This document shows positions 13,134 through 23,985 of a stretch of DNA of 64,000 bases, in pieces (the stretch's first letter is position 1; every line of letters starts with the position of its first letter). The DNA is taken from assembly GCA_017411405.1 (NCBI GenBank), contig JAFQQE010000014.1, forward strand, positions 1,067 through 65,066, written 5' to 3'. The notes under the pieces are model-generated. The model ran no database searches and had not been told where the DNA came from. It worked only from the letters and a program-made list of their open reading frames with translations. A program made the position numbers and the translations under genes. This DNA comes from Bacilli bacterium (GTDB lineage: Bacteria; Bacillota_I; Bacilli_A; RF39; UBA660).

Positions 13134-14306
13134 ATGAGAAGCAAGTTTAAGAATATGGACAAATTTTTATTTTTTCTTATGATCATTTATACTATACTTG
13201 GACTTGTTATGGTATTTAGCGCATCAAGTATGACAGCTGTATTAGAATATGGACAAAGTGAATCTTTCTTTTTTGTAAGACAACTAGTATTTGTTATTTT
13301 AGCTTATATTGCTGGATTTATTATATTATTTATTCCAAATTCTATAATTAATTTATTAAAAAAAATGAATAAATTAATTATATTTGGTGCAATAGGTTTG
13401 CTATTAATAACTTTACTTTTTGGAAAAACAATTAATGGGGCAAAAAGTTGGATTGATTTGGGTGTTATAAGTATTCAACCTAGTGAATTTGTAAAAACTA
13501 TGACAATATTGTTTATTGCATTTTCGTTTAATAATCCAAAGAAAATGTTTACTAAATTCAAGTTTTTAACGCCTTTCATATACGCTGTTATTTGTGTAGC
13601 ATTAATCGCATTTCAACCGGATTTTGGAACTGCTATGATTTTAGCAATAACATGCTTTTTTATGTTTGTTAGTTTACCACTAAAAGATTCTAACTATAAA
13701 AAATTAAAAATTATTGCTGGTGCATTTGCAGTTATATGTTGTTGTATGTTTTTCTTTGGAGGAGAAATATTAAAAAACACAAAAATATTAAGTGAAAAAC
13801 AACTTAGCAGATTAACGTTTACTAATCCTTGTACAAGATATAGAGAACCAACTGGATATCAAGTATGTAATGGTTTTATCGCAATAAATAATGGGGGATT
13901 ATTGGGTTCTGGCTTAGGTAATAGCACCCAAAAATTCTTGTACCTTCCAGAAGCATTTACAGATTTTATATTCCCAATAATAGTAGAAGAATTGGGAAGT
14001 ATAGCAGGGGCTTTTATAATAATTGGATTTTTAATAATGTTATATAGAATACTTAAAATTGCAAGAAATGCAGAAACATTAACTGGCTCTCTTTTAGCAT
14101 TCGGTACATTTTCATTAATTGTTACACACTTATTAATAAATCTACTTGGAGTATTAGCAATAATACCAATAACTGGTGTACCATTACCATTCTTAAGTAG
14201 TGGAGGAAGTTTCTTACTAAATATAATAATATTATTATTTATTACTGAAAGAGTAAGTATAGAAAGTAAAAATACTAAATTAAAAAGAGAAATTGCAAAT
14301 CTATAA
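13134..14306 (+). CDS. ftsW: SEDS-family peptidoglycan polymerase (FtsW/RodA/SpoVE)
   Basis: GLVMVFSAS, GAKSWIDLG..IQPSEFVK, QPDFGT, LPEAFTDFIF and GVPLPFLSSGGS motifs. FtsW versus RodA is not resolved. Confidence 0.88.
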   Translation: MRSKFKNMDKFLFFLMIIYTILGLVMVFSASSMTAVLEYGQSESFFFVRQLVFVILAYIAGFIILFIPNSIINLLKKMNKLIIFGAIGLLLITLLFGKTINGAKSWIDLGVISIQPSEFVKTMTILFIAFSFNNPKKMFTKFKFLTPFIYAVICVALIAFQPDFGTAMILAITCFFMFVSLPLKDSNYKKLKIIAGAFAVICCCMFFFGGEILKNTKILSEKQLSRLTFTNPCTRYREPTGYQVCNGFIAINNGGLLGSGLGNSTQKFLYLPEAFTDFIFPIIVEELGSIAGAFIIIGFLIMLYRILKIARNAETLTGSLLAFGTFSLIVTHLLINLLGVLAIIPITGVPLPFLSSGGSFLLNIIILLFITERVSIESKNTKLKREIANL

Positions 14307-14332
14307 TATGCTAAAAATATAGCATATTTTTT
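14305..14332 (+). terminator. Intrinsic terminator after ftsW
   Basis: AATATGCTA-aaaata-TAGCATATT followed by TTTT. Confidence 0.75.
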
Positions 14333-14343
14333 ATATAAAGAAC

Positions 14344-14373
14344 TTGTATAAAAATACAAGTATATGTTATTAT
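14344..14373 (+). promoter_or_regulatory. SigA-type extended -10 promoter of the small peptide gene, with a palindrome over the -35
   Basis: TTGTAT (14344-49), 18-nt spacer, TG-n-TATTAT (14365-73). The inverted repeat ACTTGTAT-aaa-ATACAAGT (14342-14361 region) overlaps the -35. Confidence 0.6.
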
Positions 14374-14446
14374 AGACATTAATATATTTAACATGCGTTA
14401 GTTGCACTCCTTATAATTAAATTATTAATTTTAAGGAGGTGAAGTG

Positions 14447-14524
14447 ATGAAACAAATAGATAAATTTTTATCTTTCGTTATAATCCTTCTATTTATATTT
14501 GTATTTATACTATTATTTAAATAG
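14447..14524 (+). CDS. 25-aa hydrophobic peptide, candidate type I toxin (MKQIDKFLSFVIILLFIFVFILLFK)
   Basis: Consensus SD AAGGAGGTG at 14433-14441, ATG 14447, TAG 14522-24; single TM helix flanked by Lys. Missed by the ORF track. Confidence 0.72.
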   Translation: MKQIDKFLSFVIILLFIFVFILLFK

Positions 14525-14641
14525 AATAAAAGCACACTAACGGGTTTTGGTTTTGTTAGTGTGCACAAACCAATTTAGGAGTGTACCTAACTAATCGATC
14601 TGTTAAGTATATCCTTTTTATTTTATGCAAATATCTTTGCT
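14525..14641 (-). ncRNA. Candidate cis-antisense RNA (type I antitoxin), about 115 nt
   Basis: Minus-strand TTGACA (14676-71), 17 nt, TATTAT (14653-48). It ends at the perfect 10-bp hairpin GCACACTAAC/GTTAGTGTGC (14532-14564), which has a U-tract only on the minus strand. Confidence 0.6.
14578..14624 (+). terminator. Intrinsic terminator of the small-peptide mRNA
   Basis: GGAGTGTAC-c-TAAC ... GTTA-a-GTATATCC stem (with G-U pairs) followed by TTTTTATTTT on the + strand. Confidence 0.7.
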
Positions 14642-14647
14642 AAATAC

Positions 14648-14676
14648 ATAATATCGTAATAAAATTTTTATGTCAA
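14648..14676 (-). promoter_or_regulatory. SigA promoter driving the antisense RNA
   Basis: Perfect TTGACA, 17-nt spacer, TATTAT; no protein-coding ORF lies downstream on the minus strand. Confidence 0.68.
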
Positions 14677-14847
14677 AAAATATAGAATAAAGAATATTAA
14701 TGTGATAAAATTTATATAGAGTAGAAAGAGCACTATTTCAAATAACTTTTATACTAACCTAAATGATAATCCATATGTAATTAATTAAAAAGAATTATAT
14801 ATCTAGATTAATTTCTTTTTTTTGTGTATAATATTTTTAGTGATTTT

Positions 14848-16155
14848 ATGAAAAATTTAAATAGTGAATTAGTAAAACAAATTAGTAATATAAAAGGTGA
14901 ACCAGAATGGATGTTAGATTTTAGACTTAATAGTCTTAAATCTTTCTTTGCGTTAGATAATCCTAGTTTTGGACCTAATATAGATATAGATTTTAATAAT
15001 ATAAATTATTATAAAAAAGTAAGTGATTTAAAAGATAATTGGGATAATGTTGATAAAGATATTAAAAATACATTTAATGAATTAGGGGTTATTGAAGCAG
15101 AAGAAAAATATTTATGTGGGGTATCTAACCAATATGAAAGTGAAGTCGTATATCACAAAAATAAATTTGATAATGATAATATAATATTTACAAGTACAGA
15201 TGAAGCATTAAAAAAATATCCGGAATTATTTAAAAAATATTTTAATAATTTAGTTAAATATGATGAAAATAAATATACAGCATTAAATGGAGCGTTATGG
15301 AGTGGAGGAACATTTATTTATATTCCACCATTTACTAAGCTAGATAGACCACTACAAAGTTATTTTAGAATCAATAGTGTATCTTTAGGGCAATTTGAAA
15401 GAACTATAATAATAGTCGATGAAGGAGCAGAGCTTTCTTATATAGAAGGGTGTACAGCTCCTACTTATTCTGAAAATAGTTTACATGCAGGAGTAGTTGA
15501 AATATATGTAGGTCGTAATGCAAAATGCAAATATTCAACTATTCAAAACTGGAGTACTGATGTATATAACTTAGTAACTAAAAGAGCAATAGTAGAAGAA
15601 AATGGCTTGATGGAATGGGTTGACGGTAACTTAGGAAGTAAAGTAACTATGAAATATCCTTCATGTATATTAAAAGGAGATTATTCCAAAGGTAATTCAA
15701 TAAGTATTGCATATGCAAAAAATGGTCAATACTTAGATGCTGGAGCTAAAATGATACATATTGGTAAAAATACTAAAAGCAATATAATTAGTAAATCTAT
15801 TGCAAGTAGTGGTGGAATAAGTAATTACCGTGGTACTACTAAGATATCTAATAGTGCAAATAATTCAATAGCAAGTATAAAATGTGATACAATTCTTTTA
15901 GATGATAAATCTATAAGTGATACAATTCCAAAAAACATAGTATTAAATGATACAAGTATAATAGAACATGAAGCATCTGTATCTAAAATAAGTGAAGAAA
16001 AATTACTATATTTAAAAGAAAAAGGTATAGATGAAGAAACAGCAAAATCAATGATAATAATGGGATTTATAAATGATTTTAAAAATGAATTACCAATGGA
16101 ATATGCTGTTGAATTAAATAGATTAATGAGTGGAGAAAATGTATGCAAGATCTAA
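14848..16155 (+). CDS. sufB: Fe-S cluster assembly scaffold SufB
   Basis: IEAEEKYLCGVSNQYESEVVY, ALNGALWSGGTFIYIP, GQFERTIII, YIEGCTAP, SLHAGVVE, HEASVSKI, ELPMEYAVELNRL. Confidence 0.93.
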   Translation: MKNLNSELVKQISNIKGEPEWMLDFRLNSLKSFFALDNPSFGPNIDIDFNNINYYKKVSDLKDNWDNVDKDIKNTFNELGVIEAEEKYLCGVSNQYESEVVYHKNKFDNDNIIFTSTDEALKKYPELFKKYFNNLVKYDENKYTALNGALWSGGTFIYIPPFTKLDRPLQSYFRINSVSLGQFERTIIIVDEGAELSYIEGCTAPTYSENSLHAGVVEIYVGRNAKCKYSTIQNWSTDVYNLVTKRAIVEENGLMEWVDGNLGSKVTMKYPSCILKGDYSKGNSISIAYAKNGQYLDAGAKMIHIGKNTKSNIISKSIASSGGISNYRGTTKISNSANNSIASIKCDTILLDDKSISDTIPKNIVLNDTSIIEHEASVSKISEEKLLYLKEKGIDEETAKSMIIMGFINDFKNELPMEYAVELNRLMSGENVCKI

Positions 16156-23337: not shown

Positions 23338-23985
23338 ATGAAATTTTTAAGTGATTTAGGAATAGAAATAAAAAACAAAGAATTATTAAGAGTTTCTCTA
23401 ACACATTCTAGTTATACAAATGAATTTGGCGGAGAAAATTATGAAAGATTAGAGTTTTTAGGAGATTCAGTTTTGCAACTTATAATGAGTGAATATTTCT
23501 TTACTAATACTGAGTATAGTGAAGGAGATATGAGCAAGATTAGAGCAAGTTATGTTTGTGAAAATGCATTATATGAATATTCTAAAAAGATTAATCTTAT
23601 AGGTGCAATTAGAGTTGGTAATAGCTTAGTTGGAAGTGTAAACGAAACTATAGTAGCAGATATATTTGAAGCAGTCTTAGCAGTAATATACTTGGATAAA
23701 GGATATGATGTAGCTAAAAAATACGTTTTAGATATAGTTTTACCATATATTAATACTAATCATGTATTTTTAAGTGATTATAAATCACATCTACAAGAAA
23801 TGGTACAAACAGAAAAAAAATCATTAGAGTATGTTTTAATAGAAGAAACAGGACCTGCTCATGATAAAAGATTTAAAGTTAATGTATTAGTAGACGATAT
23901 AGTATTTGGAACAGGAATAGGAAAAAGTAAAAAAGAAGCAGAACAAAGAGCTGCTAAAAATGCAATAGAAAAAGTAGCAAGGTGA
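23338..23985 (+). CDS. rnc: Ribonuclease III
   Basis: Signature NYERLEFLGDSVL, ADIFEAVL and a C-terminal dsRBD (DYKSHLQE...GPAHDKRF...GKSKKEAEQRAA). Confidence 0.97.
   Translation: MKFLSDLGIEIKNKELLRVSLTHSSYTNEFGGENYERLEFLGDSVLQLIMSEYFFTNTEYSEGDMSKIRASYVCENALYEYSKKINLIGAIRVGNSLVGSVNETIVADIFEAVLAVIYLDKGYDVAKKYVLDIVLPYINTNHVFLSDYKSHLQEMVQTEKKSLEYVLIEETGPAHDKRFKVNVLVDDIVFGTGIGKSKKEAEQRAAKNAIEKVAR

Follow-up and report, generated by a model that had tools for sequence, protein, structure and literature searches.

A repeated, RNA-structured module in uncultured gut Bacilli is probably a new family of chromosomal type I toxin-antitoxin systems

Introduction

A 2025 paper gives three phyla as the only ones in which type I toxin-antitoxin systems have been catalogued. 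In the Bacillus subtilis pairs bsrG/SR4, bsrE/SR5, yonT/SR6 and txpA/RatA, the toxin and antitoxin genes are convergent, the toxin is a small single-helix membrane peptide of 38-59 amino acids, the Shine-Dalgarno sequence (SD) is partly sequestered, and an antisense RNA of ~100-200 nt has full complementarity to the 3' portion of the toxin mRNA. That the resulting duplex decays in an RNase III-dependent manner is established for this group, and for bsrG an SR4-induced change of SD pairing has been reported. The organisation of these B. subtilis 3'-overlap systems, in which the antisense RNA overlaps the toxin ORF, is described in PMC8594479. In Fst/RNA II, the par system of pAD1, the mRNA hides its 5' end in a 5'-UH and its SD in a 5'-SL, and the toxin combines a charged N-terminus and a hydrophobic helix with a PXXXG(C) motif, a conserved Trp and a charged C-terminal tail (PMC7472228). 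Fst/RNA II and SprA1/SprA1as share convergent promoters and an antisense RNA that stays clear of the ORF, and Fst has in addition a shared bidirectional terminator and a second complementarity, DRa/DRb, at the initiation region. In hok/Sok (fbi) and in aapA1/IsoA1 of Helicobacter pylori, both Gram-negative, the two ends of the full-length mRNA pair over a long distance and lock it in a translationally inert state; the antisense RNA acts on the initiation region or the 5' part, and the mRNA becomes active once its 3' end is trimmed.

Here we analysed a locus within a 64,000-nucleotide stretch of bacterial DNA (hereafter, the window), for which a preliminary description had proposed a new type I toxin family on the basis of an unannotated 25-residue membrane peptide with a buried SD. 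We conclude that the locus is probably a chromosomal type I toxin-antitoxin module, with a probability that we put at about 0.77 from the sequence comparisons given below, and that its family is apparently undescribed. The module is real, conserved and multi-copy, and it is most likely a type I pair in which a new sequence family is combined with a familiar architecture. The family numbers at least 159 copies in a lineage of gut Bacilli that is uncultured and has reduced genomes; it is invisible to gene callers and matches none of the RNA and protein libraries that were searched.

Results

The short ORF is one part of a ~340-bp module between ftsW and sufB

The host genome assembly amounts to 1.04 Mb in 29 contigs (23.7% GC, 78% complete), and the window itself is very AT-rich. 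Between its ftsW and sufB genes lies a module of ~340 bp, of which the short ORF is only one part: a toxin promoter is followed by an mRNA whose 5' and 3' ends pair, an SD hairpin, the peptide ORF and, on the minus strand, a convergent antisense promoter (Table 1). The SD, the ORF and the anti-SD hairpin of the preliminary description were all present when we re-read the sequence and ran an inverted-repeat scan, and the promoter that it had attributed to the gene could be read directly from the sequence as a predicted -35/-10 pair, at which homology to a second copy in the same genome also starts. Across the family, the toxin promoters mostly carry TATAAT together with a weak -35 (mostly 3 of 6). 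A promoter listed by the scan, TTAACA-18-TATAAT (14388-14417), was rejected, as its start would fall inside the hairpin and its position is not conserved in the family.

For the toxin mRNA, a consensus scan returned no terminator because the stem is GC-poor, and terminators were judged instead from folds and family comparison. Judged in this way, the gene does have a predicted terminator of its own, as had been claimed for it, in the form of a conserved, imperfect hairpin (14578-14614) followed by a U-tract. The toxin -35 falls within a perfect 8-bp hairpin, ACTTGTAT-aaaa-ATACAAGT (14342-14361), which is disrupted in the second copy and thus probably not functional.

Table 1. Positions of the module, its predicted parts and selected genes in the window.
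Feature	Position	Strand	Details
FtsW-type gene	stop at 14306		a hairpin and T-run of its own at 14306-14333
Module	14342-14682		~340 bp
Predicted toxin promoter	14344-14373	+	-35 TTGTAT (14344-14349); extended -10 TGtTATTAT (14365-14373); start near 14380
Predicted toxin mRNA	14380-14624	+	~245 nt; fold z = -6.2; architecture common to all subfamilies
5' arms of the closure	H1 14382-14394; H2 14396-14406	+	from MFE and covariation
Anti-SD/SD hairpin	14405-14441	+	14407-14413 pairs with 14432-14438, 14415-14420 with 14425-14430; loop 14421-14424
SD	14433-14441	+	AAGGAGGTG
Candidate toxin ORF	14447-14524	+	25 aa, MKQIDKFLSFVIILLFIFVFILLFK; stop TAG 14522-14524
Antisense intrinsic terminator	14525-14564	-	stem GCACACTAAC (14532-14541) / GTTAGTGTGC (14555-14564), 10 bp, 13-nt loop
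Predicted antitoxin antisense RNA	14526-14641	-	~116 nt (14641 to 14526); fold z = -5.7
3' arms of the closure and U-tract	H2 14578-14591; H1 14602-14614; U-tract 14615-14624	+	U-tract TTTTTATTTT; arms also pair mutually as a local terminator hairpin
Antisense promoter	14648-14676	-	TTGACA (14676 to 14671), 17 nt, TATTAT (14653 to 14648); 11 of 12 consensus matches
SufB-type gene	14824-16155	+	same strand as module
RNase III gene	~23350-23976	+	TIGR02191, 212 bits, above cut-off; within the window

The ORF encodes a conserved hydrophobic peptide

The candidate toxin has a charged N-terminus, one 18-residue hydrophobic helix and a C-terminal Lys. Although the ORF list gives a 26-residue form beginning with GTG (14444-14524), the ATG at 14447 is the better start because it lies 7 nt from the GGAGG core and is aligned with the ATG of the homologues. 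What is generally expected of a type I toxin, a hydrophobic, membrane-targeted peptide of fewer than 60 residues encoded by a short structured mRNA, is thus predicted in silico for this gene.

We extracted 159 modules from loci of relatives and of public metagenome-assembled genomes (MAGs), and found a peptide ORF with an SD in 112 of them. The ORFs are 24-31 codons long and fall into four peptide subfamilies: A (25 aa, MT[KIL]RE...LLF[KR]), which includes the window's peptide, B (30 aa, MKTKTF...AIKK), C (24-29 aa, MxKKD[LF]LI...) and D (30 aa, MRKSEK...KIVPTV), with the ORF, its ATG and its SD kept across all four. The pN/pS ratio ranged from 0.23 to 0.66 and was lowest in the annotated frame in six of six length groups (0.34 in subfamily A, again lowest in this frame), which indicates that the ORF is translated and constrained; the ratios are only moderately low, as expected where hydrophobicity is the main constraint on a peptide. 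The conservation on which the preliminary description had staked its proposal was therefore found, both as homologues and as purifying selection.

No match to the peptides was found in Pfam, NCBIfam or PHROGs, and Rfam returned none for the window at E <= 10 nor for nine loci at E <= 0.1; permissive thresholds likewise yielded no Pfam toxin family and no Rfam antitoxin family. An exact cluster look-up in a collection of 15 billion proteins left nine of ten peptides absent, the window's among them, and placed the tenth in a cluster that has no name and contains one member found on 921 contigs. A literature search likewise brought up no description of this module family. Since no known toxin or antitoxin family was matched, the designation as a new family holds within these libraries and this literature search.

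The SD is sequestered in a hairpin that is conserved across subfamilies

The preliminary description had suggested folding the region downstream of the toxin promoter. Folding of 14378-14624 (247 nt) gave -63 kcal/mol, compared with -37.8 +/- 4.1 kcal/mol for shuffled sequences (z = -6.19; 0 of 200 shuffles as good), and the SD-burying hairpin appeared in both the MFE and the centroid structure, with AAGGAG (14433-14438) paired in the MFE. The helix described earlier was upheld in its main part, the pairing of 14407-14420 with 14425-14438 (an inverted repeat of 14 nt, 93% complementary, with a 4-nt loop), but the CAC/GTG extension assigned to it is not used in the MFE fold.

Using ordinary genes of this genome as controls, we found a pairing probability of the SD core of 0.87 in the full mRNA, compared with 0.51 in 97 ordinary genes that have a perfect GGAGG (p = 5e-18). 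When the 5' UTRs of 102 modules were folded on their own, pairing of the SD core with upstream sequence reached 0.81, compared with 0.38 in 300 ordinary genes (p = 3e-30). The anti-SD hairpin, whose absence from homologues had been named as a ground for abandoning the proposal, is conserved in them, with sequences that differ between subfamilies. On these predicted folds, the SD hairpin is not a product of chance.

An RBS switch, in which antisense binding or the 5'-3' pairing would toggle access to the SD, was rejected as a general mechanism. When the 3' UTR of 106 modules was constrained to be unpaired, as if bound by the antisense RNA, SD pairing was 0.86 either way, so that no action of the antisense RNA through the RBS is predicted.

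Long-range pairing closes the predicted toxin mRNA

Two helices, named H1 and H2, join the first ~25 nt of the predicted toxin mRNA to the ~35 nt immediately upstream of its U-tract. All subfamilies fold alike, with H1 (5' AGGAA... with ...UUCC), an internal loop, H2 and the anti-SD/SD hairpin stacked on this closure, followed by the ORF and by a hairpin adjoining the stop codon; the mean MFE of the family is -70 kcal/mol, compared with -34 kcal/mol for ordinary 240-nt mRNA starts.

Covariation was examined in an alignment (A3) of 63 distinct constructs, in each of which an artificial A8 spacer linked the 5' UTR to the 44 nt immediately upstream of the U-tract. RNAalifold recovered 23 pairs, 20 of them with compensatory changes. 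The alignment cells of H1 and H2 were 93.5% paired, compared with 34-47% when the partner was slid by 1-3 columns, and double changes were seen in 259 cells, compared with 13-43 after sliding (0 of 500 shuffles as high). Among the non-Watson-Crick cells, G-U combinations far outnumbered A-C ones (147 vs 25, p = 3e-22), which shows that pairing is selected in the plus-strand RNA and not as an inverted repeat in DNA. Local hairpins, formed by the two 3' arms together or by the two 5' arms together, were ~73-75% paired, above background and below the long-range form (86-93%); this suggests that local and long-range pairing are alternative conformations.

In the window copy itself the partner of H2 is ambiguous, as the MFE uses 14536-14541, an arm of the stop-codon hairpin, and the centroid and the family consensus use 14585-14591. 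It was also observed that, in subfamily A, the arms of the stop-codon hairpin (14532-14564) resemble the H2 arms GTGTACCTAAC / GTTAGTTGCAC (14396-14406 / 14578-14591), a resemblance that results in competing pairings in the fold of the window copy.

A convergent promoter is predicted to drive an antisense RNA

The putative antisense RNA consists of a 5' stem-loop, GCAAAGAUAUUUGC (14640 to 14627), an A-rich linker, a middle hairpin that is the complement of the toxin terminator, and its own terminator. This three-hairpin architecture is found in all subfamilies, with a median length of 117 nt. Its overlap with the toxin 3' UTR is perfect over 99 nt (14526-14624), and the second general hallmark of type I systems, an antisense gene with extended complementarity to the toxin mRNA, is therefore also present in silico. 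Apart from chance short frames, no ORF of at least 20 aa starts after the antisense promoter.

Among 137 distinct copies of this promoter, the -10 conformed to TAnnnT in 125, the -35 to TTGnnn in 115, and the extended TG was found in 127; by family comparison it is stronger than the toxin promoter, and homology between the window copy and the second copy stops just past it. At the other end, the terminator stem is followed by TTTTATT on the minus strand (14531 to 14525), and on that strand only, in a position that abuts the stop codon. Across the family the median distance from stop codon to hairpin is -1 nt, and the U-tract ends at the stop or within a few nucleotides of it. Of 102 modules, 81 have a U-tract of at least 6 of 9 after the stop-codon hairpin on the antisense strand, and 2 have one on the toxin strand. 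Antisense-strand folding gave the more stable form of this hairpin in 71 modules and toxin-strand folding in 28 (p = 1e-7), and the hairpin contained 113 G-U pairs when folded on the antisense strand vs 41 on the other. Together, the conserved promoter and the strand-specific terminator and U-tract argue that the predicted minus-strand RNA is real.

The module is repeated in the host genome and restricted to its lineage

A search with nhmmer, using an HMM of the antisense promoter and 5' end, identified seven loci in the host genome, namely the window copy, a copy of 94% identity on contig C14, and five diverged ones. The 94% copy extends exactly from the toxin -35 to the antisense -35 and its flanks are unrelated; its differences lie in loops, in linkers and in the last ORF codons (F to L, L to R, F to S and one silent), and leave the helices untouched. 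The other loci have the same order of parts and different peptides (MTKREFSLFIINLLLFFIVITLLYK, MKTKTFIIKVLKLIAIILLLSTLLVLAIKK, MKKRTFIVNVLRYICIILSLLIIMINAIKK, MFKKDLLIFSLIILIFLLVLLLFVVLI). Considering that the second copy carries Arg and Ser in its hydrophobic helix and that several copies are decayed, not every copy need be active. Two of the modules in this genome, C14:60164-60614 and C16:40213-40663, are closely related to each other; the former has a frameshifted peptide ORF (a pseudogene) and intact RNA helices and antisense promoter.

BLAST of the module gave matches in 33 of 61 related genomes, where the best-kept block (14602-14680) comprises the toxin terminator, equivalent to the antisense 5' end, and the antisense promoter. 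A 22-base signature pattern was found at 120 loci or more in public genomes, and nearly all of the matches listed were uncultured gut MAGs labelled Bacilli, Tenericutes, Mollicutes, Erysipelotrichaceae or Ca. Ventrenecus. In a GTDB-based set covering the window's family, a strict form of the signature occurred in 85 of 301 genomes and 70 of 214 genera, in up to 7 copies, compared with 0 for the reversed pattern in the same set; 28 other families of the class, sampled with 180 genomes, gave no match.

The preliminary description also held that the module had been inserted between ftsW and sufB, and this is supported only indirectly. Thirteen congeners have sufB and lack the module upstream of it, but ftsW is missing there too: neither was found within 1.5 kb upstream. 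A clean empty ftsW-sufB site was sought in these 13 genomes and none could be shown, because the gene order itself differs. The homologous copies nearest to the window's lie on other contigs of the congeners, and this variable location would fit a selfish or mobile module. As a separate observation, the 13 congeners carry another plus-strand ORF (up to ~490 aa) upstream of sufB, which in many of them ends ~25-40 nt before it, and the ftsW/module/sufB junction (14306-14824, compared with loci L165-L177) resembles a rearrangement point that is peculiar to this genome.

Discussion

Comparison with described systems

In its plan the module comes close to the bsrG/txpA group, with which it shares convergent genes, a small single-helix membrane peptide, an antisense RNA fully complementary to the 3' part of the mRNA (99 nt here) and a sequestered SD. 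By sequence, neither toxin profiles nor Rfam antitoxin models place it in the TxpA/RatA-BsrG/SR4 group; its peptides, of 24-31 residues, are shorter, and there is no similarity of peptide or RNA. Furthermore, and unlike that group, the antisense RNA stops at the stop codon without overlapping the ORF, the mRNA is closed by a long 5'-3' helix, and masking of the 3' UTR leaves the predicted SD pairing unchanged, in contrast to what SR4 does to bsrG.

The same convergent promoters and the same absence of ORF overlap are found in Fst/RNA II and SprA1/SprA1as, which also resemble the module in hiding the mRNA 5' end intramolecularly, in the SD stem-loop and in a charged N-terminus followed by a hydrophobic helix. 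However, the peptides lack the PXXXG(C) motif, the conserved Trp and the charged tail of Fst (subfamilies A-C contain no Pro, Gly or Trp, and their tail is only K or KK), and no Fst-type Pfam family was matched at E <= 10. Instead of one shared bidirectional terminator there are two, for the antisense RNA at 14525-14564 and for the toxin mRNA at 14578-14624, and their spacing of ~90 nt creates the long overlap. For a counterpart of DRa/DRb the indication is weak: the trans contact between antisense RNA and 5' UTR computed with RNAduplex had a mean z of -1.7, with 35% of values below -2.

The 5'-3' closure, together with alternative local hairpins of the co-transcriptional kind, is a likeness to hok/Sok and aapA1/IsoA1. 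Here, however, the antisense RNA covers the 3' arm itself and there is no leader ORF, whereas hok/Sok has the mok leader and an antisense RNA against the 5' region.

The family matters in several respects. Its size and diversity give an unusually clean covariation signal for a whole toxin mRNA, and hence a testable structural model comprising 5'-3' closure, a locked RBS and an antisense target in the 3' UTR. It offers natural variants for studying how such mRNAs are silenced and later activated. For annotation, it accounts for orphan sRNA promoters and for conserved intergenic blocks that look 'empty' in these genomes.

Alternative explanations

Each in-silico prediction of the type I reading that could be examined was borne out, and we consider the proposal of the preliminary description supported. 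The same anatomy would nevertheless fit a small membrane protein that is harmless, such as a regulator or a complex subunit, tuned by a cis-antisense RNA and having no toxin, addiction or defence role, the more so as the peptide is constrained only to be hydrophobic. We regard this as unlikely in view of the up to seven or more copies per ~1-Mb genome, the tandem arrays, the pseudogenes and the orphan antisense genes, a presence that is patchy and devoid of conserved neighbours, the combination of four divergent peptide subfamilies with one RNA architecture, and a double locking of the mRNA that is typical of toxins. It is very unlikely that the unit is a non-coding repeat (MITE/REP-like, or a locus for a structured sRNA) and carries its short ORF by accident. 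Its repetition as a highly structured ~340-bp unit, its inverted-repeat-like ends and the absence of nine of ten peptides from the protein collection might suggest so, but the ORF, ATG and SD would not then be expected to persist in four subfamilies with pN/pS lowest in frame in all six groups. The SD is moreover strong and optimally spaced, the excess of G-U over A-C points to pairing at the level of RNA and not of DNA, and neither a transposase nor target duplications were seen.

The position of the module, 200 nt upstream of sufB and on the same strand, raises the question of a cis-regulatory leader (a leader peptide or attenuator) for that gene. This can practically be set aside, given that the module has its own terminator and U-tract, occurs in unrelated contexts (six other sites of the host genome and, elsewhere, beside tRNA/tmRNA or dnaJ/frr), is absent from 13 congeners that do have sufB, and matches no Rfam leader. 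A short, cationic and hydrophobic peptide could also be a leaderless bacteriocin or be exported in some other role; we hold this to be highly improbable for a stand-alone ~340-bp unit near which no immunity, transporter or modification genes were found, and whose locked RBS and antisense RNA are not a bacteriocin arrangement.

Proposed mechanism

If the locus is a type I module, its weak toxin promoter would make the ~245-nt mRNA for a 25-residue, single-helix membrane peptide, and this mRNA would be translationally inert as made, owing to the 5'-3' closure and to the SD buried beside it. The stronger convergent promoter, with its extended -10, would produce the ~116-nt antisense RNA, which would meet the 3' UTR, probably making its initial contact by pairing of the loop of its own middle hairpin with the complementary loop of the toxin terminator hairpin. 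RNase III, which is encoded in the window, could then cut the ~100-bp duplex and keep the toxin mRNA low, as in bsrG/SR4 and txpA/RatA. Upon loss of a short-lived antisense RNA, the toxin mRNA would persist until some activating step, either processing or refolding, allowed the peptide to be made and to enter the membrane, where it would stop growth.

We also consider, tentatively and with more doubt than confidence, that the four arms (two in the 5' UTR and two in the 3' UTR) constitute a built-in refolding device. During transcription, the 5' hairpin and the local terminator hairpin, the latter being the antisense target, would form, and after release the arms would swap into the more stable 5'-3' form, hiding both the 5' end and the antisense target. 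If true, refolding would provide a timed window for antisense capture followed by a protected pool of dormant toxin mRNA, a logic that would be novel among Gram-positive 3'-overlap systems; the family would represent its lineage-specific expansion in ~1-Mb genomes.

Arrays, orphan copies and genomic surroundings

Some modules occur in tandem arrays, for instance five copies 350-520 nt apart at G101:C11:6247-7969 and four copies ~380 nt apart at G183:C3:43839-45021, with a further array at G256:C9:18319-20220; tandem arrays are typical of type I loci. At four loci (L017, L018, L022 and L025), the antisense promoter, the antisense 5' end and the 3'-UTR arms are kept and the toxin ORF is missing, and these would be either orphan antitoxin-like sRNA genes or decayed modules. 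Others adjoin tmRNA, tRNA or T-box genes (L021 1088-1440, L047 22-462, L092 3573-3736 and L009 2376-2449), neighbours that may mark islands or integration hot spots. Module-bearing contigs of 24-36% GC were also present in MAGs labelled Roseburia, Clostridium or Muribaculaceae (L089, L085, L087 and L042); these matches are probably mis-binned contigs of a low-GC Bacilli lineage, or else due to chance. Finally, the AAA AAA TAG that specifies the C-terminal Lys residues and the stop in subfamilies B and C (e.g. L003 1440-1450) also serves as the U-tract of the antisense terminator, so that one sequence is constrained by both strands.
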